Assembly (NCBI RefSeq): GCF_000018105.1
Contig: NC_009925.1
Coordinates: 2,250,001 to 2,282,000, forward strand
DNA: 32,000 bases
From: Acaryochloris marina MBIC11017
Lineage (GTDB): Bacteria > Cyanobacteriota > Cyanobacteriia > Thermosynechococcales > Thermosynechococcaceae
Reading direction: 5' to 3'
Part shown: positions 18,029 through 30,710 of the stretch, piece after piece
How positions within the stretch are numbered: the stretch's first letter is position 1
Layout: the number at the start of each line of letters is the position of its first letter
The notes under the pieces: model-generated
Databases searched by the model: none
Seen by the model: the letters and a program-made list of their open reading frames with translations, nothing else
What the model was told of the DNA's origin: nothing
Program-made: the position numbers and the translations under genes

Positions 18029-18102
18029 CGGGGCGTAGCGCAGCTTGGTAGCGCACCACTTTGGGGTAGTGGGGGTCGTGGGTTCAAATCCCGCCGCTCC
18101 GA
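18029..18102 (+). tRNA. tRNA-Pro (anticodon GGG)
   Basis: Hand-folded 74-nt cloverleaf: acceptor CGGGGCG/CGCTCCG, D-stem GCGC/GCGC, anticodon stem CCACT/AGTGG, loop TTGGGGT (anticodon GGG), T-arm GTGGG-TTCAAAT-CCCGC, discriminator A. No encoded CCA. Confidence 0.9.
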
Positions 18103-18104
18103 TT
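18056..18104 (+). repeat. attL: 49-bp direct repeat (3' half of tRNA-Pro from the anticodon stem, plus 2 nt)
   Basis: CCACTTTGGGGTAGTGGGGGTCGTGGGTTCAAATCCCGCCGCTCCGATT is identical at 30655-30703. Confidence 0.85.
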
Positions 18105-18220
18105 GACTGTAATTCTTATATCTGGCAAGGCTTGAAGGCTACTGATACTAGCTTTCAGGTCTATTTTTGTGCAATCAATATGCATTGAAATAAGTCCGTT
18201 AAAGCTGGTTAGTCGTTTAG

Positions 18221-18244
18221 TTGGCCGGATAGATTGGCCGGAAG
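18221..18244 (+). promoter_or_regulatory. Candidate integrase arm-type site (TTGGCCGGA x2), attL side
   Basis: TTGGCCGGATAGATTGGCCGGAAG lies 10 nt upstream of the integrase GTG. An identical 24-mer is at 30575-30598. Confidence 0.4.
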
Positions 18245-18253
18245 GATTAACCT

Positions 18254-19363
18254 GTGAAAAGTAGAGATAAAGTGCAGGTCACCAGTGATAGGGGGATGCT
18301 AAGACTCCGGTGGACATATATAGATAAACGTCAGAGCCTCAACCTTGGATTAGAAAATACCCGGATTAATAGGACTTATGCCAATGGCATTGCTAGGCAA
18401 ATAGCAGAAGATATTAGATGTGGTGAATACGATGTCACCAAAAATAAGTACAGGCCCAAGCTGATTGGTAATTCTGGCTTAAACTGCTCAGAGTTATTTG
18501 ATAAGTTCACAACCTACAAACAACACGATTTAGGCATCTCCCCTCGATCTGTTGAAACAAGATATATTCCGTTATCCAGGGCTTTAAACAAATGGTTAGA
18601 TATGCCTGCTCATGAGGTCACTAAAGATCATGCTAGGCACTTCATGAGTATCCAAAGTGAGCATGTCACCGCTGACACTGCTAAAGCCAGAATTGGATTA
18701 TTGGGAAGCTGTTGGAAGTGGGCCATACAAGAAGAACTATTAGCCACAGATAATCCTTGGGTTGGCTTGAGAGTAGCTCTTAAACCTCAACCAACTCAAC
18801 GAGTGAAACCCTTCAATCGAGAAGAAATCAAGGCTATCTTGTCCGAGTTTAGGAATAATCGCTATTACTCACATTATTCAGACTTTGTGATTTTCCTATT
18901 TGGTGTAGGTTGTCGGTTTGGAGAAGCAGCAGGATTACTGTGGAAGCATATTGCAGATGATTTCCAAACAGTCTGGATAGGAGAAAGCGTTTCTAGAGGC
19001 TATCGGAAAAGCACTAAGACTGGAAAGGCGAGGACGATAGTGCTATCCCCAAACGTACAATCGATGCTTAAAGCGCGATACGAAAGGCTGAAGCCTAATC
19101 TCGAAGATTTAGTTTTCCCTAGTCCACAAGGGTTACCAATATGCGATCGCAGTTTTAGAAGACGGGCGTGGAAAACAGTTCTAATTAAATGTGGCATTGA
19201 ATATCGAAAACCCTATGCAATAAGGCATTCCGCAGTTAGCCATGCACTAGCTAGTGGTGCTGATCCAATCAGTGTTGCTGAGCAAAGTGGGCACGATAAG
19301 AGAGTAATGCTGGAAAGCTATGCCCATGTCATTCAACCCCAGAGCGTTTTTATAGAGTTTTAG
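18254..19363 (+). CDS. Tyrosine-type site-specific integrase (phage integrase family)
   Basis: 369 aa, GTG start. N-terminal arm-binding-like VQVTSDRGMLRLRWTY. Catalytic signature: RFGEAAGLLW (R), AIRHSAVS (HxxR), GHDKRVMLESYAH (H...Y). Confidence 0.9.
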   Translation: MKSRDKVQVTSDRGMLRLRWTYIDKRQSLNLGLENTRINRTYANGIARQIAEDIRCGEYDVTKNKYRPKLIGNSGLNCSELFDKFTTYKQHDLGISPRSVETRYIPLSRALNKWLDMPAHEVTKDHARHFMSIQSEHVTADTAKARIGLLGSCWKWAIQEELLATDNPWVGLRVALKPQPTQRVKPFNREEIKAILSEFRNNRYYSHYSDFVIFLFGVGCRFGEAAGLLWKHIADDFQTVWIGESVSRGYRKSTKTGKARTIVLSPNVQSMLKARYERLKPNLEDLVFPSPQGLPICDRSFRRRAWKTVLIKCGIEYRKPYAIRHSAVSHALASGADPISVAEQSGHDKRVMLESYAHVIQPQSVFIEF

Positions 19364-19365
19364 TA

Positions 19366-20151
19366 ATGGAAAGTGAATTAGAAAATATTATTTGCCAGAG
19401 GATCCCCTATAAGGGTTGGATGGCGATTAACTACATGGGTGTCACATTAGAGCCTGCGATAATTAATAACATAATTGAATGTGATTTATACCTATCTTTA
19501 TGGCTTCGACATAAGGTTCTTGGTGAAAGAAAGGATCATAGTCTTGCGAGTGACACAGGGGGGGAGTATTGTTGCGATTTTTGGTATGCTCGCCTCAATC
19601 TAATTCTGGAGTTATATAAACGATCCGATGTAATCCAAAAGGGTGAATTAGCAGACCTATTTGTTTCTTGGAGTCCATACCTACTTTGGTGGACGTGCCT
19701 TTGTGAAAGTGCAATACGTGAAATTGAGAGAATTGTTTGTGAATTACCTATAAGAAAGGATTCTTTCCTCAAGTTTCACACTCAGAACTCTCCCGAAGAT
19801 CAGGAAGCGAATCCACCGCATGATGGCATAATCCCTGGGCGACTTCCCCAGTTGTCATCATACGAGTGCCCTGATATAGAAATCCAATTAGGTTTGGTAT
19901 CTCAAAATCATAACCCTAAAGAGAATGAGATGCTTTTATTCACTTTGATTGAGAAAGAAGCCAAAATTATTAGCGATAAAGATACTTCTTTCCAACCACA
20001 CTTCGATAACTATATAAGGGAAGATCGAAAGCTAATTTACCGGATGAATCGAGATCCCAAATTCTCATTCCTGAATGTTCGAGAAGGAAAGATATTGGAA
20101 AGCAAGAGAGGCAGACCCAGGCACCCAAAAGGGTTCGGAAACAGAAAATAG
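19366..20151 (+). CDS. Hypothetical island protein with a C-terminal AT-hook-like KRGRPRHPKG
   Basis: 261-aa ORF starting 2 nt after the integrase stop. No family recognised. Confidence 0.55.
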   Translation: MESELENIICQRIPYKGWMAINYMGVTLEPAIINNIIECDLYLSLWLRHKVLGERKDHSLASDTGGEYCCDFWYARLNLILELYKRSDVIQKGELADLFVSWSPYLLWWTCLCESAIREIERIVCELPIRKDSFLKFHTQNSPEDQEANPPHDGIIPGRLPQLSSYECPDIEIQLGLVSQNHNPKENEMLLFTLIEKEAKIISDKDTSFQPHFDNYIREDRKLIYRMNRDPKFSFLNVREGKILESKRGRPRHPKGFGNRK

Positions 20152-20351
20152 AATGTAACAATTTTGTGATATTAGAGCAGTTAATTCTGTATTTCGTTTG
20201 ACTACGAAAAGTCCGATTAGGTTTGTTATAGCCTTTAAGTCTTGCTATGGACCAAAAGGATTACAGCAAAAAAAATTAATCCGGTAGTACCTTCTCGTCA
20301 AAGTTGATCACTACCGGACTGATTAACAATCTAAATCATGGACGATTTATC

Positions 20352-20630
20352 ATGTTTACCCATCAGCATAAAGCTATTTTCCCATTCGTTGATACAAGAA
20401 CCTTACGTACCCACTTCCAATTGGGGAAGTTTTGTGAATCAAGGTTACGTGAGCAATTGCCCAGTCCTATTTATTGGATTCAGCCAGAACGAAAAGTTTT
20501 ATGGAACATCCGTCTGGTGCAGGACTATTTACTAAATGGTGATGGGCCTAGCCACCAGAGGTTGGTTGAAGAGTATCTATCAACCCTTGAGCCTCAAATT
20601 GACAATTTCAGCAACCAATATGCGGCTTAG
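20352..20630 (+). CDS. Small DNA-binding protein, possibly AlpA/excisionase-like
   Basis: ORF 20304..20630; I prefer ATG 20352 (MFTHQH...). LPSPIYWIQPERKVLWNIRLVQDYLL resembles the FP.P...G.R...W....V..WL tail of AlpA/MerR-type excisionases. Weak functional call. Confidence 0.4.
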   Translation: MFTHQHKAIFPFVDTRTLRTHFQLGKFCESRLREQLPSPIYWIQPERKVLWNIRLVQDYLLNGDGPSHQRLVEEYLSTLEPQIDNFSNQYAA

Positions 20631-20633
20631 GAG

Positions 20634-22202
20634 GTGAATAAAGTGAATTCTTCAACAAATAATCCACAAAATTTTTCTAGCATACTTGATGTTGCGATAG
20701 GGTATCTAGACTTAGGTTCGTCACCTCTACCAGTGGCACCAAAACAGCCTAATTCCAATTTTAATGGGAAAAATCCAAGCTATTTAGATGAACAAGGTAA
20801 GGCTTATCTAATTAGTAGCAAGCAATATCAGAATAAGCAACCAACTCGTACAGAGATAGATCTATGGTTTGCTAACCCTGAAAATGGCATTGGAATCCTT
20901 GGTAATAATCACTTGCATATAGTTGATGTCGATACCAAGCATTTCGATAGTAAGGAAGTATGTGAGCAAGTCGTTAATAAATGGCTGGATAAGCATTCTC
21001 AACTGCATGATGCTCAGGTAGAAAGAACTCTTAGTGATGGCTTCCACATATATGTAGAGTTTGCAGAGCCACCAGGGTTTACACGCTTTGCTTTTAGTGA
21101 GGGTGGATCACACGTAGGGGAGATCCAAGGGCCAAATCAGTTCACTGTCGTGGCACCCACTGTTGGTTACCAGGTAGTACAGAAAGGTAGATTCGCCCCT
21201 GTCATCGATGCTGAGTCTATTGGGCTGTACTCAATCAAGAAGGCTAAGAAAGCTAAAGCAAGCAGGTCTGATCAAGTCCAGAAAACAGTAAGAATCAAGC
21301 CAGAAAATAGTGATGCTTTATCCCTGCTGGAATTATCCACAAGGGGGGTCCAGGCAATATACCAAAGTCAACCTGAGTCTGATGATAGGAGTAAAGACAT
21401 CACCAAAGTTGCTAACGAGCTTTATGGTTGGGCAAATTGGTGTGAAGCAAATAACCTGGCTTATGATCCAGAGCCTCGAACTCTCCTTGTGGATCTTGCA
21501 TCTAACTTGGACATTGATGAGGACAGATTAGACAGAATCATTGATTCCATAGACATTGATGACTGTCAACCAGCTTGTGTATATGAAGGGGGAGATGAGG
21601 CAGCTTGGAAGAAGATCAAGAAGCTATCAGTAGATGTGGAACTAGAGGAAGTTACCACAAAAATATTGATAGACAGCACAATCATAAAGCCTCCCCAACT
21701 CTTTCATAAATCGTTATATGGCCCACTCAGTGATCTTGCATCAAATCTTGAGTTACCAGTAGAAGCTTTTCTTGTTTGTATTCTTCCTATCCTGGCTTCA
21801 AGGCTTAAGGCTGAGACAAGGCTAATAATCGATCCAGGAACTGGCTACCATGTACCGCCAATCATTTGGGCTGGTTTAGTAGGTGAATCAGGAACCATGA
21901 AAAGCCCCATTCTTAAGCTCCTCACTAGACCTTTGTCGAGGTTGCAACAAGAAGTCCACGAGAGCTATCAACTGGAAGTCTCTGAGTATGAAAAGGATTT
22001 GCAACGGTTTCAGTCTCGGTCCAAAAAACTACCTATCACCCCAGAAAAACCTAAGCATCCCAACATGAGAGATTTATTTTTCTCTGACTTTACGATTGAG
22101 GCCATTGCCGATTCCATCTGTCATCATCCATCAGAAGGCTATCTAATCCATATAGATGAGTTGGCTGGATTCTTTAAATCGATGGATGCCTATCGTAATT
22201 GA
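20634..22202 (+). CDS. Prim-Pol (bifunctional primase/polymerase) N-terminal domain plus the start of a DUF3987/YfjI-like helicase domain; ends at an in-frame TGA
   Basis: Prim-Pol motifs HIVDVDTKH (DxD) and SDGFHIYVEF. Later P-loop-like GLVGESGTMKSP. The same frame continues open after TGA 22200-22202. Confidence 0.75.
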   Translation: MNKVNSSTNNPQNFSSILDVAIGYLDLGSSPLPVAPKQPNSNFNGKNPSYLDEQGKAYLISSKQYQNKQPTRTEIDLWFANPENGIGILGNNHLHIVDVDTKHFDSKEVCEQVVNKWLDKHSQLHDAQVERTLSDGFHIYVEFAEPPGFTRFAFSEGGSHVGEIQGPNQFTVVAPTVGYQVVQKGRFAPVIDAESIGLYSIKKAKKAKASRSDQVQKTVRIKPENSDALSLLELSTRGVQAIYQSQPESDDRSKDITKVANELYGWANWCEANNLAYDPEPRTLLVDLASNLDIDEDRLDRIIDSIDIDDCQPACVYEGGDEAAWKKIKKLSVDVELEEVTTKILIDSTIIKPPQLFHKSLYGPLSDLASNLELPVEAFLVCILPILASRLKAETRLIIDPGTGYHVPPIIWAGLVGESGTMKSPILKLLTRPLSRLQQEVHESYQLEVSEYEKDLQRFQSRSKKLPITPEKPKHPNMRDLFFSDFTIEAIADSICHHPSEGYLIHIDELAGFFKSMDAYRN

Positions 22203-22310
22203 AAAGGGGCTGATAGGCAGAGGTGGTTAACTTTTTATGGTGGGGACTCTCTCAAAGTTAATCGAAAATCTTCTGAGCCGATCTATATCCCTAAAACCTC
22301 AATCAGTTTA

Positions 22311-23219
22311 TTGGGAAGTATTCAGCCTTCAGTGTTAGGGAAATTGGTATTAGATGATCCCACATCGGAAGATGGCCTCTGGCCCAGATTCCTGTGGTTT
22401 CGTCTGCCAATAACAACTCCACCAGGAATCTCAGATAGGCCGAAGCTTGATTTAATGCCCTTACTGAAAGGTGTTTACTGTGGCCTAAATGAGCTTGATG
22501 CCCAAGAGCACCGACTTTCAAGGGGAGCAATAGGGGTATGGAATCAGTGGAATCATGAGATAGGCCAGCTTATCCAACAAGAACCATCCAATATTCTCAG
22601 AGCTATATATCCAAAGTTCAAGGAGATTGCAGGCCGAATTGCCCTCATTGTTCACACCACAAATTGGGTATTAGACCAGTTAACTCTCACAGAGGGTTCA
22701 TCTACTTTTGAGGAGTCCATTATCCCTGGAATCCGGCCAATAGAGAGTGAGATCTCTGCAGAAACACTCACTGATGCTATTCAATTCACCAAATGGCTCA
22801 TGGGTCAAACTAGAAGCCTCTACTGTGAACTTGGATTATCAGACAAGGAATCATCCAGAGTTGTCAGATGCATCAATCGTTTTAGGGGATGTGGATGGAT
22901 TAAGGCTAGAACCATTACTCAATGGTGGGGGTCTACATCAAGACCTAAGGTTCAACAGGCACGAGAGTTTATGAGTCAAATTGTTGCACTGGGATATGCC
23001 ATTGATAATGGTAAGTCAGTGAATGATTCCAAATACCAAATCAAAATCACCGTACCTACAAGCCAATCCACACTTAATGCAGTAGGTGGTAAAAGTGTTG
23101 GTACGAGTTGGGAAGAAGTTGGCCACCATCCCAACAGGCTTAAAGCCATAGAGGAAAGTAGTTCCAGGGATTCTGTTGGTAATGTTGGCACATTTCTAGA
23201 ACAGAAGGTCAACAGATAG
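22311..23219 (+). CDS. C-terminal part of the DUF3987-like primase-helicase (same frame as 20634..22202)
   Basis: The frame is open from 22203 (KGADRQRWLTFYGGDSLKVNRKSSEPIYIPKTSISLLGSIQP...). It has no convincing start of its own. 22311-20634 is divisible by 3. Confidence 0.65.
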   Translation: MGSIQPSVLGKLVLDDPTSEDGLWPRFLWFRLPITTPPGISDRPKLDLMPLLKGVYCGLNELDAQEHRLSRGAIGVWNQWNHEIGQLIQQEPSNILRAIYPKFKEIAGRIALIVHTTNWVLDQLTLTEGSSTFEESIIPGIRPIESEISAETLTDAIQFTKWLMGQTRSLYCELGLSDKESSRVVRCINRFRGCGWIKARTITQWWGSTSRPKVQQAREFMSQIVALGYAIDNGKSVNDSKYQIKITVPTSQSTLNAVGGKSVGTSWEEVGHHPNRLKAIEESSSRDSVGNVGTFLEQKVNR

Positions 23220-23276
23220 TCTACATACCGTGGTCAGAATTTCCTGCTCACTACTACGGTCTTAGGGAGGTGTGTG

Positions 23277-23864
23277 ATGACGACCTCTAAACCATTTCTC
23301 AACCACATAACCACTGTGGGGGAGACTGATTACCCTACTGTAAGTTTTGAAGATGATCTCATAAGACTTAAGTATCCTGATGGCTCCACAAAATGTATAC
23401 CTAGTTTTGCATTCAAGAGCTGGTATCTAACTCTTCCCCCCTATGACTTCTCTGATTCCACTGAAAGTTTGGGTGCTATTGCATTAGGACCTGCAGGGAA
23501 AGGGGCAATTATCACCGATGTGGACGATTCTTGGGTTACTGTCAGATACCCCAATGGCACATCTAGGAAGCTATCAAGGAGAGGTTTCATAGAGTGCCAG
23601 AGAATCAAATCCACTACATTTAAGGTGGGTGATTGGGTTCTAGCTATGCTTAAGGACCTGACCTGGGTAACAGTTCAAATACTTAGCCTAGACACCCCCA
23701 CAAAGGTTATAGAAGGTGAATCCTATACCTATATTCAGGGTTGTGGGTTCAGAGCCAAAATACTAAGTAAGCCTAAGTCTATATGGAGTATTCAAATTCC
23801 CGTTCAGATTATGTGGCCTCGTAAACCACCTAATATGCAAGGGCTTGATTACTCTCTTACTTAG
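23277..23864 (+). CDS. Hypothetical island protein with internally repeated DD....YP[DN]G[ST] modules
   Basis: GGGAGG lies 6 nt upstream of ATG 23277. Repeats: FEDDLIRLKYPDGSTK and VDDSWVTVRYPNGTSR. Confidence 0.6.
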   Translation: MTTSKPFLNHITTVGETDYPTVSFEDDLIRLKYPDGSTKCIPSFAFKSWYLTLPPYDFSDSTESLGAIALGPAGKGAIITDVDDSWVTVRYPNGTSRKLSRRGFIECQRIKSTTFKVGDWVLAMLKDLTWVTVQILSLDTPTKVIEGESYTYIQGCGFRAKILSKPKSIWSIQIPVQIMWPRKPPNMQGLDYSLT

Positions 23865-23868
23865 AATG

Positions 23869-24064
23869 TGCCAACAATACCAACAAAAAACTTGAAAGTA
23901 CTGCCAGATAAAGGTTTAACCCTGTTGGCAAGCAATTCAACAACTACCCAACAGGTACCAACAAATTCTTCTTCGGATTAATTGTTGGTATTTGTTGGCA
24001 TCTATACCAACACACCAAAGTCAGTAAGAGAAATGGTCTCAGCGTTTTGTTGGCAATGTTGGTA
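23869..24064. repeat. Iteron cluster: nine perfect copies of the octamer TGTTGGYA in both orientations (putative island origin)
   Basis: Forward copies at 23923, 23983, 23993, 24048 and 24057. Reverse copies (TRCCAACA) at 23869, 23878, 23956 and 24005. An AT-rich tract follows (24070-24190). Confidence 0.6.
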
Positions 24065-24256
24065 TGTTTTCCAGGATCTAATAAAACAATCTTAATAATT
24101 AAACATACGCAAACAAGAAAATATTTGAGCTGGAATTTTCATATATACTCATTTCATTAAATCAATTTGAGTATTTATTATCCTAAACACGCTAGTCCAA
24201 AACTACGCACTTTCAGTGCGAGACTTTAGTTGCTACACATCTCCAATGCAGGATAA

Positions 24257-24604
24257 AGAAGTAGTATCAAGAAGTCTATAGTCGAGAATCATCTGGGAAA
24301 TTATGCTGTCACCCGCTTAACTATATTAAAAGGGATGGTCAGTAAAGATCATGATCATACGCTAATTGAATATCCCCCATCGAAATCGATCAGTGACATA
24401 GCCAAGCGGTTGAAAGGGTTCACATCAAGGCGACTTCAGCAAGAGTATCGAGAGTTAGAGCGGCGATATTGGGATAAATATCTGTGGGCCTTAGGTTATG
24501 GAGCCTGGAGTACAGGTAATATCAGTGAACAGATGGTGGAGGAATATTTGGAGCATCACCGTCTCGTGTCTAATAACGATATAAATACGTTCATGCTGGA
24601 GTGA
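24257..24604 (+). pseudogene. 5'-truncated IS200/IS605-family TnpA (Y1 HUH transposase) remnant
   Basis: ...YAVTRLTILKGMVSKDHDHTLIEYPPSKSISDIAKRLKGFTSRRLQQEYRELERRYWDKYLWALGYGAWSTGNISEQMVEEYLEHH matches the C-terminal ~2/3 of TnpA. The HUH motif is degenerate (HDH) and the N-terminal ~35 aa are missing. Flanking hairpins at 24206-24220 and 24657-24671. Confidence 0.65.
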
Positions 24605-24728
24605 ATCAAGACTTTAGTCCTGAGAAGAATCGGACATTAAGTCCATCAATGACCTCTGTGCTTTCAGTACAAATTCGTTAAGTTTTTCTAGATTAGTTGT
24701 TTAAATTTCTCACTACTAGAATGGTGAA

Positions 24729-25202
24729 CTATTTTGAATATTTACCAACTACTATTCCAATAAAACCTCCAGCTAACGAAATAGATAATTTTTCACATAA
24801 ATCTATGAAGTTTTTTTCATTATATGCCAAAGGCTCTTTAAAGTAATAAGCAGACCACCAGGCACCCACAAATGCAGCTATCATCAAAAGAGCACAAACT
24901 ACAAGCATTACTTGATAACTTGGACTTAAATTAATAGCTGTTGGATTTAGTATCTTATCTTGAAGAAGTTCAACTTGCTTTTCAAGTGTCTCAACCTGGC
25001 CCTTTAGATGTTCTATAAACTCTTTATCCGTTCCTTCATGCACATGAAAACTATCTACTACTTTCGTAGTAAGACTTTTATCATTATTCGCTGGATACCT
25101 AAGAAAACTTTTTGGCTTTAGGGGATTATTAAAAGATAAGATAATTATTTTAAGGAGGTCTAAAAATATAAATAATCTAGTAGTCTTTTTAGTTCTAATC
25201 AT
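24729..25202 (-). CDS. Coiled-coil protein with two C-terminal TM helices (cargo cassette gene D)
   Basis: 157 aa. Heptad-like EFIEHLKGQVETLEKQVELLQDKIL. TM segments YQVMLVVCALLMIAAFVGAWWSAYYF and LSISLAGGFIGIVVG. Very AT-rich. Confidence 0.55.
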   Translation of the reverse strand: MIRTKKTTRLFIFLDLLKIIILSFNNPLKPKSFLRYPANNDKSLTTKVVDSFHVHEGTDKEFIEHLKGQVETLEKQVELLQDKILNPTAINLSPSYQVMLVVCALLMIAAFVGAWWSAYYFKEPLAYNEKNFIDLCEKLSISLAGGFIGIVVGKYSK

Positions 25203-25666
25203 ACTTTAGTGGGAGTTGATTAACTAAGTCCAGCTCACATGCCCCTGAAAAGTCACAAAGAATTTATACAGAATTTTATATGTTTAGGTTTTTTATTCTC
25301 TTGAAATAAATTCTTTATTTATATCTGTGCTCATAAAGTTTTTATAGCAATTACCAAATTATATATATTGAAGTTTATATGTGTATATTTCAGTCGAAAA
25401 GTGAATTTTCGTAGTTAACTTTGTCTACCTTTGAGGTCAACATAAGTTTATTACAAAGAGTTTACTCAACGAAGTCAATAGAGGCTTAAAAATCACGTAA
25501 ATATGCAGAATCCCAACATTATATACACAAGATAGTATGGAGTCAAAACGTTTGAAACACAGAAAATTGTTATTTAGCCTTACATATGTAGGTACGAACC
25601 CTAATTCACATTTTGCTCATGAAGAAGAGTTCATAAGTAGCGGTTTTGAATGCTGATCAACTGATG

Positions 25667-26080
25667 TTAATGGGTAAGAAAATATTCTTCTCCATTAAAA
25701 CACGCCTCTAACTCATCTAAAATATCTCTACCTATCAATGCGATTTCTCTACTCCAAGCTAAAACAGACCTATTTGGAAGAATAATTCCATCCAACCTAA
25801 TCGATAGGGAATATGGATCATAAAAACCATGCCCTCCTACACCATAACTTATAACCGCAGGACCAATAAGAGGTGCATTCAACTCGAGTATTAGATCTTT
25901 AGGTATAAATGTTATAGGTGAACCAGTATCCAAAAGGCCATAGCAAGAAGAATCTTCGCCGAAAACAAATTCTTCTTGATAAGGTAGAGAAAGTGCAATT
26001 CTTGCAAAAGGTCCGCTCCTCACCGTATTACTATCAGAATCATGAGAATTAATATAGGGAGGAGTGATGTATTGTGGCAC
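25667..26080 (-). CDS. Retropepsin-like (clan AA) aspartic protease (cargo cassette gene C)
   Basis: 137 aa, the size of one retropepsin monomer. Active-site LLDTGSPITFIP and the flap-distal ALIGRDILDEL (compare the retroviral DTG and GRD/N motifs). Its start lies 7 nt after the stop of the upstream gene. Confidence 0.6.
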   Translation of the reverse strand: MPQYITPPYINSHDSDSNTVRSGPFARIALSLPYQEEFVFGEDSSCYGLLDTGSPITFIPKDLILELNAPLIGPAVISYGVGGHGFYDPYSLSIRLDGIILPNRSVLAWSREIALIGRDILDELEACFNGEEYFLTH

Positions 26081-26087
26081 TTATTAG

Positions 26088-26834
26088 CTATTCCTTAGGA
26101 AGCGGTGTAAAGACCCCATAATTATCACTTGTTTTAGACACTTTTTTTATGAAGATATTTTTACTTCCTCGAAATTCTCCAGCAACTTTAGTTACCGCAG
26201 CCATTGAATTACCAGCATACAATACTTCTCCATCATGAAATAAAACATATTGGCCAGCATATTTTTTGATTAATTCATCAAGTTTTTGGTTGAACAGATG
26301 ATTTTGCCTTTCAATATATTTTCGGGGTTCTTCAAAACCATCCATTTCTAGCTTTACCTTCTCAGCGGATTGGGCTAGAACACCAATCGTATTTACATCA
26401 TCTACAACATTTTCTTCTAATTGGCCCTCATGAAAAAAGGCGCTTGCAACATTTGCACCTTTTTCAATTAAAACCTCAGTGCAGAAGTGGTGACCGATAT
26501 CTGGGCAAACTGTTGCTACATGAGGGGATAGATAAGGATGTTGATCACCTGTATTTAGCAATTCACGAGAATGTTGTATTGATTTGTTTGCTAAGTCGTT
26601 TCCATCATTCAAATATCTCCCTTCATCTATATCATGATGGGGGGCATGATCTTTGCAAACTTGCTGTTCTCGCGCAGCCAAATGCGCTTCTTTCACCTGA
26701 ATTATATTTAAGACCCCAATACCACAGCTAACGGGTGAAATTGTTCTAAAGTGGCAAGACAATTCTTTAGTCCATCGACTTTCCAAGTCAGCCAATTTTC
26801 TAGAGGTATAAACGACTCTCTTAGGGTAAACCAT
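26088..26834 (-). CDS. Cys/His-rich protein with a DUF5678-like C-terminal module (cargo cassette gene B)
   Basis: 248 aa. N-terminal region has SCHF, VSCG, VCKDHAPHHD and VCPDIGHHFC. The C-terminal LDELIKKYAGQYVLFHDGEVLYAGNSMAAVTKVAGEFRGSKNIFIKKV matches my memory of DUF5678. Confidence 0.55.
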   Translation of the reverse strand: MVYPKRVVYTSRKLADLESRWTKELSCHFRTISPVSCGIGVLNIIQVKEAHLAAREQQVCKDHAPHHDIDEGRYLNDGNDLANKSIQHSRELLNTGDQHPYLSPHVATVCPDIGHHFCTEVLIEKGANVASAFFHEGQLEENVVDDVNTIGVLAQSAEKVKLEMDGFEEPRKYIERQNHLFNQKLDELIKKYAGQYVLFHDGEVLYAGNSMAAVTKVAGEFRGSKNIFIKKVSKTSDNYGVFTPLPKE

Positions 26835-26897
26835 GGCTAAAAATATCTTGCTAAAGGACGAAACATCAAAAGCTATCTAGTTGAGGGAGAAACTACT

Positions 26898-27806
26898 TTA
26901 ATCGGATAATATTTTCTTTGCATTGTAATAAACAGTAGAAAACTGAGTAAACATCAATTGATTTATTAAATAAATTGACAAAATATCAGTAAGAATTTGT
27001 ATAAAAAATCTATCTTCGAGCTTAAAATATTCTACATTGATATGGTCAAAACATAGAAATCCAAATAAAGCTCGCTGAGTGGAGCTAATAATTTGAAACT
27101 TTTCAATAAATTCTTTCCTTAACTTTTTCGTTGCCAAAGAAACTGGAAGTATAAGCGTGGATTTATAACACGTTTCTGGGGGAGATTCAATACTTTCTTT
27201 AGAGCCCACCCTTGAAACTGGAGACCAGCAGCTGACCCATTCTTGATCATACCTATCTCTGAACTTTCTACTGTGATCAACACTATGAGTTGTAGCATAT
27301 ATATATGCTGCCTTATCTTTTATCCTTATGTTCACATATTTTCCATTTGCAATTTCGTTAGGTATATTATTGCACAAATAAAAATCTTTACCCTGAGCAA
27401 TCTCAAGAAAACCTGTATTAGCTGAAATTTCAGTGTTGTTGTCTGACAAAAATGACTCTGGTATCTTTAAAAGAGTTGCTAGTTTGTCCTTAGAAATAAC
27501 TTTAAGAGTTAACCGTGGTGATATGTTTGACCTACCCTGAAAATATACCAATGAATACTTATAAGCCTTCTCAAAAATTCTCCCAAAATCATCTAAGAAA
27601 AAGCCGTCAAAATCAGCTAATAATTCTCTCAGGTGATCTTCTTCATCTTTACTTATCTCTTGCTTATCTGAAGTTATAGATTGGATACATTGTCTTAGAT
27701 TTTTATGATTTTCATTAACCATAAAAATATGCTGCAATAAACTTGTTTGACTACTGCAAACATAATCACTTAAAAGCTCTAATAATTTTGATTCAATCTC
27801 ACTCAT
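26898..27806 (-). CDS. Hypothetical protein, possibly GAF-like sensor fold (cargo cassette gene A)
   Basis: 302 aa. C-terminal STLILPVSL...RALFGFLCFDHINVEYFKLEDRFFIQILTDILSIYL resembles the end of a GAF domain. No catalytic motif seen. Low-confidence fold guess. Confidence 0.5.
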   Translation of the reverse strand: MSEIESKLLELLSDYVCSSQTSLLQHIFMVNENHKNLRQCIQSITSDKQEISKDEEDHLRELLADFDGFFLDDFGRIFEKAYKYSLVYFQGRSNISPRLTLKVISKDKLATLLKIPESFLSDNNTEISANTGFLEIAQGKDFYLCNNIPNEIANGKYVNIRIKDKAAYIYATTHSVDHSRKFRDRYDQEWVSCWSPVSRVGSKESIESPPETCYKSTLILPVSLATKKLRKEFIEKFQIISSTQRALFGFLCFDHINVEYFKLEDRFFIQILTDILSIYLINQLMFTQFSTVYYNAKKILSD

Positions 27807-29070
27807 TATTTTATGATTTTTAAGGTCTAACTGAGATTCATAAGTATCTGCTTAATTAAGTGAATATTTTCAAGAATTTAGTAGGATATAATGAAAAAAT
27901 AATTAACCCAACAATATCACTAATAGAATTTAGCAGATTGTATATTTCTTTACAAACAATCGTTTTTTTTGCAGTTTAACTATAGCTCATTCTTGTATTA
28001 AGCTGCTTCAGCAATACCCCTGAGAAAAAATTAGAATTCGCTTATTGTTTTCATTAGAATTACCGATGCATTTTTCTCAAGGAAGCAATAAGAAGAGTTG
28101 GATCCACAAAGAAAGAAAACTTTCTGTATAATATTATACTATTTTAAAGCGATTATGGCTTTTGCCCCAGATTGTTTCATTGAAGCAAGCGATCATGAAA
28201 GGATAATCTATTGTGCTCCAAAGACGAGAATTCGTGTTTTGCAGCCCTGTAAGAGTTTTTTCTTTCAGAAAGGGTTGTATACGGTAACACACTTAGATAT
28301 TCTCCTGCTTGTTGGCTATTCATGTTGATTTTTGGGGCTCTCTATTCTAGAGTGTAATTTTTTTTAGGTAGTTTATTTATACTTAATGACTATTATCTTT
28401 CTGTGGTTTTGCCAAATAATACGCCGATTTTACATTTCTTATTGCCAATCTCTGCTTTTTTATCATTCTCTCCCGCTTATATTAAGGATTTATAGTTGAT
28501 GGCTTTTCGAAAACCTTCTAAAGTCTTTTCTAATTCGCGAGATCAAAGTTGAGATTTTATAAAGTAAAACCAATTGTTTGATTTAAGATAAAGTCAGTTT
28601 ATAGAGATGACCTCCACAATCTCTAAGTCAATGAATAGCTAGGGTTGCCCCTGAACCTTGGATATTCTAATAAATAGGAAGTAGCACAGAGCTTGAATAA
28701 ACTTGCCAATGACGTAGTAAGCAAAACAATGATGTAACTACTTGAAGTTGAAAAAGTAAACAAAAATTGTTAGGTTGCAAGTACCTTGAATTAATGGATG
28801 AGTCAGTCACCAGAGTAATGATTAAAATCAACAGGTAAATTTGTAATACTGGAAACTGGCCGGAAAGTTGAACAAAGCTGTTTCATGGGAGTATTCCCAA
28901 AACGGGACAATAATCTGAAACGCTCCCCAGGAATTTTACCTAGTGAATTTGGCACTGGTCTCTTAACAAGGCGCACGTCTAAAACCTTTATTGGTTATGA
29001 GTTCTAACATGCTAAGCGGGCGTGAAGAAAATCCCATCTCCATCGCTGGCGTAGTCTGCTTGCTGAGCCC

Positions 29071-29637
29071 TCAATGGGGTCTAACCCAGTTATGAATCAG
29101 CCGTTGTACGTCTAGCACTCTCTGAAAACCCGACTGCTTCTTAGCGTAGAGATTCTGCCTTTTTCGATAAGCACTACATCGTCTCCTCAAGGCAGCATTG
29201 TGAGCCTCGTTGTGATTGGCATGGACCTCAGATGCTGGACTGATAGCGGTAAAGGGATGCTCTGCTTTCACCCACTTCACCCACTTCACTCGCCGATTCG
29301 CCTGAAATCCTTTAACTTTCATCGCGACTTCTAATCCGTCTCGCCAAACCTTGCGATGCCCATAATCAGGGTGACACTCCTCAGCGTTGAGAGAGACACT
29401 GGCGAGCTTCCAAAGTTCTTGTCCATAGCGTCTTTCTCCATCAGTAAACCATTGAATCCCATCACAGGTTTTCATCCACTCCCAAGCTGATTGAACGCCA
29501 TCAATAAAGAGTTGTTGATCCTTGAGACCAGCCTGTGCTGTAAACCAATAACGGCTCGCGCGCTCAAGGAAGTGGATGGTCCAGCCCTGGGACTGGCTAG
29601 AGGGGAAGATTTTCGCATACACGAGTGTAAACTTCAT
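29071..29637 (-). CDS. IS1 InsB-like DDE transposase catalytic part (+1 frame relative to InsA)
   Basis: WFTDGERRY (second D) and HANHNEAHNAALRRRCSAYRKRQNLYAKK (E region) parallel IS1 InsB MTDGWPLY / IERHNLNLRQHLARL. 41-nt overlap with the InsA frame. Confidence 0.75.
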   Translation of the reverse strand: MKFTLVYAKIFPSSQSQGWTIHFLERASRYWFTAQAGLKDQQLFIDGVQSAWEWMKTCDGIQWFTDGERRYGQELWKLASVSLNAEECHPDYGHRKVWRDGLEVAMKVKGFQANRRVKWVKWVKAEHPFTAISPASEVHANHNEAHNAALRRRCSAYRKRQNLYAKKQSGFQRVLDVQRLIHNWVRPH

Positions 29638-29968
29638 CCCCTTCTACCGTCACATCAGAACTTGCTGGAGCTGGGGGTGACCAGTTCAGTGCCTGATCTG
29701 CTAGGTGCTTTTCCCACCGCATAATGGTGGTATGAGATGTCCCAAAAGTACGACCCGTTGCACGGACTCCCATTCCTTTGGTGCGAGCCTTGATGGCATA
29801 GCTCACCACTAAACTGGTGGTGCGTAAGCGAGCCATTGGGTTACCTGTGCGTTCTTTGAAACGCCGATTGCAATCCTCACACTGATATCGCTGGACTAGT
29901 GTCCCATCTTGCAGGCTATCAAAGCCTCGTTTATGGATCTTCTGGCTCTGGCAGCATGGGCATTCCAT
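29597..29968 (-). CDS. IS1 InsA-like (zinc finger plus HTH) ORF
   Basis: CPCC...CEDC zinc ribbon. GMGVRATGRTFGTSHTTIMRW HTH resembles IS1 InsA. It ends with GDEVYTRV (first DDE aspartate region). Confidence 0.75.
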   Translation of the reverse strand: MECPCCQSQKIHKRGFDSLQDGTLVQRYQCEDCNRRFKERTGNPMARLRTTSLVVSYAIKARTKGMGVRATGRTFGTSHTTIMRWEKHLADQALNWSPPAPASSDVTVEGDEVYTRVCENLPL

Positions 29969-30300
29969 TGATCTACATTACGTTGTGTCGGAGCCATTCT
30001 AGCTAGATCCAGTTGATAGACCAGTGCCAATTAGACCGCTTTGATAGCATTAACTCTGGATAATAGTAGTTTTTTTCCTTTTACTGGCGTATTTTGTACT
30101 GTGGAAACTTTGTTCAGTTTAGAAGTACTTGAGTTTACTACCCTTATTTTTCCATGTTAACTGGGTAAAGATACGTAGCTATGATATAAGTCCGACAACC
30201 TTACCTGAAGTTATATAAGCAATACTTATACTTCCCTGTTATCTGGGATTAATCTTGTCGAAACTGGGTACTCTAAGGTTAACGTTTTTGACTTTTCGTT

Positions 30301-30546
30301 ATGCCTAAGAAGAAAGGCACCCCTGGTGGTAATCCCAATCCAGTCCAGACACCACAATTCATAGCCAAGCAATTTAAAGCTGATGACGTGCCTGAAGGTG
30401 TCAAACTTCAAAAAGGCTTGACGGCAGTTAGACTACCTGAAGACATAGCTGATCTAGTTAATGGTTTGGGTAAAGAGAAACCAGCTTGGCTACGTCGAGT
30501 GATTACCACAGCAGTGAAGCAAGAGTTGATGGGAGGTGAGGAATAA
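30301..30546 (+). CDS. Small basic protein, possibly ribbon-helix-helix DNA-binding
   Basis: 81 aa. TAVRLPEDIADLVNGLGKEKPAWLRRVITTAVKQEL fits a strand-helix-helix pattern. It ends 28 nt before the arm-type repeat near attR. Confidence 0.45.
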   Translation: MPKKKGTPGGNPNPVQTPQFIAKQFKADDVPEGVKLQKGLTAVRLPEDIADLVNGLGKEKPAWLRRVITTAVKQELMGGEE

Positions 30547-30574
30547 GAACGAATTTACGTTGTTTCAGATGCCA

Positions 30575-30598
30575 TTGGCCGGATAGATTGGCCGGAAG
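30575..30598 (+). promoter_or_regulatory. Candidate integrase arm-type site (TTGGCCGGA x2), attR side
   Basis: Identical 24-mer to 18221-18244 in the same orientation, 56 nt before the attR core. Confidence 0.4.
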
Positions 30599-30654
30599 CA
30601 TTTGGAAGAAGCCTTGTAAGTCTTGCTAGACAAAGATTTTGTAGATCATGTGAC

Positions 30655-30703
30655 CCACTTTGGGGTAGTGGGGGTCGTGGGTTCAAATCCCGCCGCTCCG
30701 ATT
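30655..30703 (+). repeat. attR: displaced 3' half of tRNA-Pro (49-bp direct repeat)
   Basis: Identical to 18056-18104. The preceding sequence does not complete a tRNA. Confidence 0.85.
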
Positions 30704-30710
30704 AACTTAG

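Follow-up and report, generated by a model that had tools for sequence, protein, structure and literature searches.

In a 32,000-nucleotide window of the Acaryochloris marina MBIC11017 genome (contig NC_009925.1, positions 2,250,001 to 2,282,000 of the forward strand), two adjacent genes, B and C, encode a protein ending in a DUF5678 domain and a small retropepsin-like aspartic protease. Comparison of their relatives across genomes and metagenomes shows that the pair forms the invariant core of a cassette that is rare, modular and mobile by horizontal transfer. The same comparison shows the DUF5678 domain of B as what appears to be an obligate, translationally coupled partner of C, and the genes flanking the core, a putative sensor (A or the unrelated X) and a small membrane protein (D1 or D2), as parts that seem to be swapped around it. 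This cassette is absent from Pfam, NCBIfam, the PADLOC system models and the searchable literature, and the adjacency of DUF5678 and retropepsin genes is real and likewise undescribed in the searchable literature. A preliminary description of this stretch, made from its letters alone, had noticed the B–C pair; it overlooked the four-gene cassette, with its predicted GAF-fold protein and small membrane protein, and the integrated island in which the cassette lies (Table 1).

The DUF5678–retropepsin pair and its neighbouring genes

Genes B and C lie on the minus strand, where the TAG stop codon of B (26088-26090) is separated by 7 nt (26081-26087) from the GTG start of C (at 26080); a recheck on the DNA returned the same strand and spacing as the preliminary description had given. 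GTG is also the start codon of most C genes. Related loci were collected by scans of genomes and metagenomes and by exact-protein look-ups, and were scanned with our own profiles of A, the C-terminal domain of B, C, D1 and D2 (loci carry L numbers and related proteins P numbers below). In 17 of the 18 independent loci with room downstream, the DUF5678 domain is followed by a C gene at a distance of −4 to +30 nt. These 17 include one locus with degraded B and C remnants (L015) and a metagenomic contig of ~60% GC (L036), on which a minimal DUF5678 protein (103 aa) and an RVP protein (128 aa) form a pair. B and C are thus co-conserved, and the rule given in the preliminary description, by which DUF5678 proteins precede small clan AA proteases, is true of the cyanobacterial loci and of this one metagenomic contig.

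Beyond the pair itself, the order A-B-C-D recurs in seven further independent loci, and A also precedes B-C on a truncated contig. In other cassettes the first gene is X, which encodes a conserved ~230-aa protein unrelated to A; the B-type protein (B′) then has a different N-terminal region, and C and D2 are retained (Table 1). A gene for a D12-class DNA methyltransferase adjoins the X-type cassette of L034. In addition, a D2-type membrane domain with three segments is fused straight to a C-terminal DUF5678 domain in P0011 (L035 154-747) and P0024, and such fusions link the membrane component with the protease-partner domain.

Protein C reads ...CYGLLDTGSPITFIP... around D51-T52-G53 (codons 25922-25930) and ...EIALIGRDILDEL... 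around G117-R118-D119 (codons 25724-25732), so that both the DTG and the GRD motif named in the preliminary description are present on the DNA. The catalytic motif LLDTGS occupies residues 49-54 and the second motif LIGRD residues 115-119, with a flap-like YGVGGHG (residues 79-85) between them. In a family profile made of C and seven homologues from genomic loci (eight aligned sequences), the order of DTG, GxGG flap and GRD/N aligns with the GIGG and IIGRN of HIV-1 protease. The catalytic motif is kept in all eight sequences, as DSG in one, and also in L036; GRD/N is found in all seven of the eight that reach that far, and the Gly-rich flap is conserved. Searched against the PDB, this profile matches HIV-1 protease, the monomer with an E-value of 1.3e-6 and tethered dimers with values as low as 9e-11, in an alignment spanning HIV protease residues 20-98, and it matches the HTLV-1 and EIAV proteases likewise. 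Three of the eight homologues also match RVP, gag-asp_proteas or Asp_protease_2 at E 5e-5 to 1.5e-4.

As a single sequence, C remains sub-threshold in Pfam (Asp_protease_2, E 0.012 and 16.7 bits versus a gathering cut-off of 24.3; RVP, E 0.14) and matches HTLV-1 protease at E 0.16. The claim of a stand-alone retropepsin, as first put forward, stands at the family level, C by itself lying under the Pfam thresholds. On these profile comparisons, membership in the retropepsins is convincing for the C family, and C of the window probably shares it as a member of that family. Word-indexed homologue searches with B and C returned self-matches only, and C is identical (100%) to an NCBI protein named pepsin/retropepsin-like aspartic protease family protein; the locus corresponds to AP026075.1 at 5.56 Mb. 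By hydropathy, C contains neither a hydrophobic segment nor a signal peptide. C is predicted to be a soluble, cytoplasmic aspartic protease of the retropepsin fold, and by analogy with all retropepsins it should act only as a homodimer.

In its size and motifs, C resembles the retroviral and other clan AA proteases (RVP, Asp_protease_2, gag-asp_proteas; HIV-1, HTLV-1), which share a monomer of ~100-130 aa and the same motif order and spacing. Unlike the retroviral enzymes, it lies outside any polyprotein or retroelement, with no reverse transcriptase (RT), integrase or Gag, always has a DUF5678 gene upstream and carries an N-terminal extension of ~45 aa, which in the C family has a conserved Y..Y….AP[F/Y] motif of its own. 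A retroelement remnant was considered and rejected, as neither RT nor Gag is encoded nearby. Among bacterial proteins, Rickettsia APRc, Caulobacter PerP, Bacillus subtilis SpoIIGA and the Pseudomonas Rlo proteins are likewise stand-alone clan AA proteases. The best-understood bacterial members of this clan are dedicated processing or signal-transducing proteases, and APRc, PerP, SpoIIGA and Rlo are membrane-embedded, periplasmic or secreted. C differs from them in lacking a hydrophobic segment or signal peptide and in being paired with a cytoplasmic DUF5678 protein, and since the characterised bacterial enzymes are membrane-embedded, periplasmic or secreted, a cytoplasmic C would stand apart. 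PMC11957051 deals with Pseudomonas enzymes of its own and cites papers on APRc, SpoIIGA and the PodJ-truncating protease.

B residues 187-233 (26136-26276) match Pfam DUF5678 (PF18929), and the C-terminus of B reads ...YAGQYVLFHDGEVLYAGNSMAAVTKVAGEFRGSKNIFIKKV.... Full-length B scores 23.1 bits (E 6.8e-5) versus a gathering cut-off of 23.2, and its last 89 aa alone score 25.2 bits (E 1.4e-5), above the cut-off, which bears out the DUF5678 module first noticed there. The Pfam/HMMER check suggested in the preliminary description was thus passed by the C-terminal part of B against PF18929, whereas C alone fell under the cut-offs of the clan AA families. Among B-type C-terminal domains, 33 of 38 match PF18929. 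Compared with the 49 residues of the Pfam model, the conserved C-terminal unit is ~80 aa long, adding an N-terminal helix YIExQxxLF and a C-terminal hTPh tail, and it is found with diverse N-terminal fusions. A full HMMER scan of 1.8e9 representatives returned 48 relatives of B, 46 of which match residues ~160-248 only; the sole end-to-end alignment is to P0018, a distant protein with 26% identity. The DUF5678 domain always stands at the extreme C-terminus, behind mutually unrelated N-terminal regions of 0-230 aa. Searches of PDB sequences with B and its C-terminal profile gave noise only, none of NCBIfam, PHROGs and PADLOC yielded a useful match for A, B or D, and no function or paper was found for DUF5678 in the literature.

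A conserved [Y/W]-P-[D/S/E]-x-E motif, counted by eye, precedes the DUF5678 helix by ~10 residues in 11 of the 48 relatives (P0011, P0014, P0017, P0023, P0024, P0029, P0033-P0036 and P0039). Tyr-Pro is the classic retropepsin scissile bond. The Tyr-Pro motif is absent from B of the window and from the B subfamily linked to A.

Composition of proteins A, B and D

Neither as a single sequence nor as a family profile did A match anything in Pfam, NCBIfam, PADLOC, PHROGs or PDB sequences, and its family comprises only 11 clusters among 5.8e9. An AF2 model built from an 11-sequence alignment (pLDDT 87.5, pTM 0.84) contains a pair of long helices at the N-terminus and, after them, an alpha/beta domain. 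In a Foldseek search of the PDB, the top matches of this model are all GAF domains (E 2e-4 to 5e-3, probability 1.0; TM 0.55-0.64 on single-GAF targets), including cyanobacteriochrome and phytochrome, cAMP-binding Lcd1 and fRMsr, with bilin-binding GAFs at the top; a BFVD search with the model returned phage or viral GAF proteins. The alpha/beta domain superposes on the GAF domains of phytochromes and cyanobacteriochromes, cNMP-binding proteins and fRMsr, and its final strand (LFGFLCFDH) and the following helix show the usual pattern. Unlike GAF domains in general, A has no Pfam GAF HMM match, begins with a helical hairpin and has invariant residues of its own. The model shows, within the limits of a prediction, that A has a GAF fold. 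Residues N146, P149, Y157, N159, R161, W190, W194, CYKST 213-217, C252, D254 and H255 are invariant in the A family and suggest a specific pocket as a candidate. Distant homologues, 29-30% identical across ~60% of the protein, occur by themselves next to secDF/yajC, without B, C or D (L023 6001-6960; L024 6001-6786).

The N-terminal ~190 aa of B had been described as a Cys/His-rich domain, which suggested metal binding and a faint resemblance to HNH nucleases. The quoted strings SCHF, VSCG, VCKDHAPHHD and VCPDIGHHFC are all found in B of the window, whose residues 1-190 hold 5 Cys and 12 His. When B was aligned with 16 relatives (17 sequences), none of the 16 N-terminal Cys/His positions scored was conserved. 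C110 and C118 are the only two seen again, in a single relative; at position C37, 13 of 16 relatives carry Tyr or Phe and none carries Cys; and Cys and His are entirely missing from the N-terminal regions of P0003 and P0009. In Pfam, NCBIfam, PADLOC and PDB, this region of B matched neither HNH nor any other domain, and the best-looking cluster, VCPDIGHHFC, falls inside a stretch that matches an ankyrin-like repeat. Because the positions are not conserved, the idea of a metal-binding or HNH-like domain was rejected, and we regard it as hardly credible. On the alignment, the Cys/His-rich stretch appears to be a non-conserved linker. The invariant Cys and His residues of the A family place the conserved Cys/His of the system in A, not in B.

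Instead of such a domain, B has a short conserved motif at its N-terminus, then a linker whose length and sequence are hypervariable, and last the DUF5678 domain. The family consensus of the motif is TLA[D/E]LE, followed after ~15-20 aa by PVS[Y/F]G..R[Y/F]. The B proteins encoded after an A gene carry this motif, or at least its PV[S/D][Y/F]G half (the window, L009, L012, L016, L018, L017, L021 and L033), and an A gene upstream of P0009 was predicted from the B motif alone and then found there. Within the linker, the stretch 'VCPDIGHHFCTEVLIEKGANV' tentatively resembles a lone ankyrin-type repeat: the ankyrin-repeat protein P0012, one of the 48 matches, aligns with B residues 110-138, and BLASTP of B with single P0012 repeats gives E ~1e-3 with 13/24 identities. 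B has no Pfam Ank match. This stretch is not conserved among the B relatives and is lineage-specific.

In two contigs (L003 and L005, from SRR4784084 and SRR4784082), a 1-nt deletion removes the G of GTT at Val35 (window 26732). It sits in the PVS[Y/F]G motif and truncates the frame, for which gene callers give a product of 202 aa; apart from the deletion, the aligned B region (861 nt) shows no difference, and SRR4784081 has the intact gene.

The small membrane protein D of the window is of type D1; besides its transmembrane (TM) segment, a second, weaker hydrophobic stretch near the C-terminus is visible by eye and lies under the hydropathy threshold in the window protein. D1 is recovered by its own profile at E 9e-65 (hmmsearch), and its homologues adjoin C in L009, L016 and L018. 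D1 and D2, both small membrane proteins by hydropathy, are unrelated. D is convergent with C in all nine other D-containing cassettes, often abutting or overlapping it, and the different orientation in the window suggests a local rearrangement. The promoter-like site between C and D suggests that D may be transcribed separately. Among inverted repeats that could explain a flip of D, only a weak 15-nt pair (87%; 24731-24745 and 25497-25511) was found, which we judged to be chance in AT-rich DNA.

The genomic island around the cassette

The cassette is apparently cargo of a low-GC island at a tRNA-Pro gene, which carries an integrase and a primase and is bounded by direct repeats of 53 nt that are 98% identical. 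GC content is 31-44% within the island and 31-36% around the cassette, compared with ~46-53% outside, and remnants of insertion sequences (IS) lie on either side of the cassette.

Table 1. Features of the window and layouts of the related cassettes (positions refer to the window unless a locus is named)
Feature	Position	Strand	Description
Gene C	25667..26080	minus	Retropepsin-like aspartic protease (predicted); ORF, 137 aa, GTG start
Gene B	26088..26834	minus	DUF5678 partner protein; ORF, 248 aa
B N-terminal motif	26721..26798	minus	Residues 13-38; KLADLES…ISPVSCG, from alignment
B ankyrin-like stretch	26424..26522	minus	Residues 105-137 (HVATVCPDIGHHFCTEVLIEKGANVASAFFHEG); phmmer match to P0012, tentative
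B C-terminal module	26100..26324	minus	Residues 171-245; helix YIExQxxLF, DUF5678 core and hTPh tail
Gene A	26898..27806	minus	302 aa; N-terminal helical hairpin and GAF-fold domain (predicted); 63 nt upstream of B
Gene D (type D1)	24729..25202	minus	157 aa; coiled-coil N-terminal part, TM segment 98-116
Promoter-like site between C and D	25518..25546	minus	TTGACT-17-TATAAT, 11/12, consensus match only
Integrated island	18029-30707		12.6 kb, at tRNA-Pro(GGG); attL start to attR end 18056..30707
tRNA-Pro(GGG) 3′ half / attL	18056-18108		Direct repeat
attR	30655-30707		Direct repeat
Tyrosine integrase	18254-19363		Pfam label
PrimPol/DUF3987 genes	20634-23219		Pfam labels
Y1 transposase fragment	24335-24604		IS200/IS605, N-terminally truncated, adjacent to the cassette; 89 aa, Pfam Y1_Tnp positions 48-120 of 121
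Cassette A-B-C-D1			Window, L009 (Drouetiella), L016, L018
Cassette A-B-C-D2			L012 (Coleofasciculaceae), L021, L033
Cassette A-B-C, then contig end			L017
Cassette X-B′-C-D2	L031 461-2847; L034 66-2324

Other features of the island were noted in passing. A second direct repeat, TTGGCCGGATAGATTGGCCGGAAGGATT, 96% identical and itself internally repeated, occurs just inside both island ends (18221-18248 and 30575-30602, plus 30588-30615) and may be a candidate arm-type site for the integrase or an excisionase. The PrimPol/DUF3987 primase-helicase is apparently split into products of 522 aa and 302 aa, the latter covering only DUF3987 profile positions 202-363, and may be a frameshifted or duplicated gene. 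Upstream of A, ~1.2 kb (27807-29070) at 30-35% GC contains no ORF of at least 90 aa and has no Rfam match; an Rfam scan of the window returned tRNA only. Further on (29071-29968), a patch of ~50% GC within the island contains two ORFs, of 188 aa and 123 aa, that have no Pfam match, and the C-terminus of the 188-aa ORF resembles, by eye, a DDE/IS-type transposase tail.

Such surroundings raise the question of whether the cassette is decaying, non-functional cargo on an old island. The IS remnants, the 1-nt deletion in B of SRR4784082/84, the Cys in B of the window at a position that is Tyr or Phe in 13 of 16 relatives, the re-orientation of D relative to other cassettes and the degraded B and C fragments in L015 would all be consistent with this explanation. 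However, the window and most read sets carry all four ORFs in intact form, and the catalytic and family-invariant residues are kept in A, B, C and D, so that decay appears very improbable.

Possible functions of the cassette and their implications

We tentatively favour the view that the cassette is a mobile conflict or addiction-type module with the DUF5678 domain as the partner of the protease, a view that may well be right without being the expected outcome. At rest, the DUF5678 domain would keep the protease inactive or sequestered in a 1:1 complex, in the manner of an antitoxin, and the N-terminal motif of B would dock this complex onto A. The GAF domain of A could sense a small molecule or a stress such as phage infection, and this signal would then free or activate the protease, which might cleave B and/or another target and activate the membrane protein D as the output, with growth arrest or death as the result. 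The cassette could in this way work as a defence, abortive-infection or island-addiction module. A role of DUF5678 as inhibitor or tether is favoured over that of a pure substrate because it is always a free C-terminal domain, because it is made in cis just before the GTG-started protease, and because it also exists as a minimal protein of ~100 aa. A bolder version, in which the cassette would represent an undescribed class of mobile conflict system with a swappable sensor and membrane protein and with a DUF5678-restrained cytoplasmic retropepsin as its signal-transducing protease, is in our estimate somewhat unlikely.

The layout of the cassette is reminiscent of type II toxin-antitoxin systems and of protease-gated systems (gasdermin plus protease, CalpL/CalpT, ImmA/ImmR), in which a small upstream partner is coupled to an enzyme. 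As in type II toxin-antitoxin systems, the two genes are small, co-directional, closely spaced or overlapping, and co-conserved, and here they are located on an island. As in protease-gated conflict systems, the cassette is mobile, patchy and modular, with swappable sensor and effector parts and a membrane protein as a plausible effector. None of its components is homologous to those of toxin-antitoxin or protease-gated systems, and the likeness is architectural only.

A possible connection to candidate defence systems was given by PADLOC, in which five of the eight C-family members weakly match PDC-M08B models with a best E-value of 4e-5 and another PDC-M08B model reaches 1.2e-6; C of the window gives E 0.057. 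These matches indicate that the candidate system PDC-M08, which is unvalidated and for which no paper was found, also uses a small retropepsin-like protein. A, B, X and D2 had no match to any of the PDC-M08 models, and D1 matched only an unrelated, weak ABC-permease model. Membership in PDC-M08 was rejected, as the partner component is missing. Literature searches on retropepsins with antitoxins, anti-phage functions or defence found nothing relevant except a note on CRISPR loci of Sulfolobales, in which small (~100 aa) retropepsin-domain proteins such as Saci_1895 are reported to be associated with type III-D CRISPR loci (PMC3973734). The Saci_1895 type thus represents another free-standing prokaryotic retropepsin in a defence context.

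A simpler account would take B and C as a plain two-gene pair of the toxin-antitoxin kind, with C as a proteolytic toxin, B as its antitoxin through DUF5678, and A and D as mere neighbours. The pairs consist of small genes that lie 3 nt apart or overlap by 4 nt, the one for the small protein coming first; some N-terminal regions of B′ (P0039 and P0048) resemble antitoxin-type helix-turn-helix (HTH) domains by eye, and the mobile-island location of the cassette fits an addiction pair. Minimal DUF5678–retropepsin pairs that lack both A and D occur in L011, L026, L030 and L036, from which it follows that the core function does not require A or D; this agrees with the two-gene account and is the first of several points against the four-part conflict module. 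On the other side, A or X together with D1 or D2 accompanies the pair in at least 10 independent loci, the N-terminal motif of B is found where A is found and on one occasion correctly predicted it, and the D2::DUF5678 fusion speaks against a plain toxin-antitoxin pair. We know of no proteolytic retropepsin toxin, and literature searches on such toxins found nothing. All in all, the two-gene account seems unlikely.

The remaining alternative is regulated maturation or signalling, in which C would process B as a pro-protein or adaptor, as SpoIIGA does with pro-sigma-E or PerP with PodJ, and a metabolic or light signal sensed by the GAF domain would be passed on to the membrane protein. GAF domains are classic cyanobacterial sensors, the top Foldseek matches of A are bilin-binding GAFs, and the characterised bacterial retropepsin-like enzymes known to us are dedicated processing proteases. 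Furthermore, the YP[D/S/E]xE motif in 11 of the 48 relatives resembles Tyr-Pro retropepsin sites, and the L021 cassette lies amid chromosomal housekeeping genes with no recognisable defence island. Against this, the motif is missing from B of the window and the A-linked subfamily, occurrence is rare and extremely patchy (11 clusters of the A family among 5.8e9), the location here is a low-GC island, and modules swap between loci. Regulated maturation is therefore judged to be improbable to about the same degree as the two-gene account.

Besides the minimal pairs and the housekeeping surroundings of L021, other observations weigh against a conflict or addiction module. L010 has a DUF5678 gene without a protease, the sole exception among the loci with room downstream. 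No copy on a plasmid was found by tblastn with C, the C-terminal domain of B or a typical DUF5678 protein, viral contigs yielded no relative, and no PDC-M08A-like partner was matched among A, B, X and D. C of the window stays under the Pfam and PADLOC thresholds, and its single-sequence AF2 model (pLDDT 32) is unusable. D of the window is co-oriented with C across a 464-nt spacer, so that its link to the module is by conservation only. The contacts between B and C and between A and B, the inhibition, the cleavage and the role of D are all steps that we infer.

With the anatomy of the cassette solid, its function is what we infer, and the locus provides a testable system that combines an obligate partner domain, a predicted sensor of ligand-binding fold and a candidate membrane effector, in which natural module swapping tells which part talks to which. 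To our knowledge, bacterial and archaeal genomes widely encode free-standing retropepsin-like proteins of the cytoplasm, which are essentially unstudied. If the cassette is not a defence or addiction system, a tempting mis-annotation of B as a metal-binding or HNH protein would still have been corrected. If the bolder version of the conflict reading is true, the locus would give free-standing cytoplasmic bacterial retropepsins their first defined cellular role and regulator, and would offer a prokaryotic context for the origin of retroviral proteases. Should the cassette prove to be a defence or addiction system, aspartic proteases would join the short list of protease classes in prokaryotic immunity, and DUF5678 and the A family, both orphans at present, would each gain a function.

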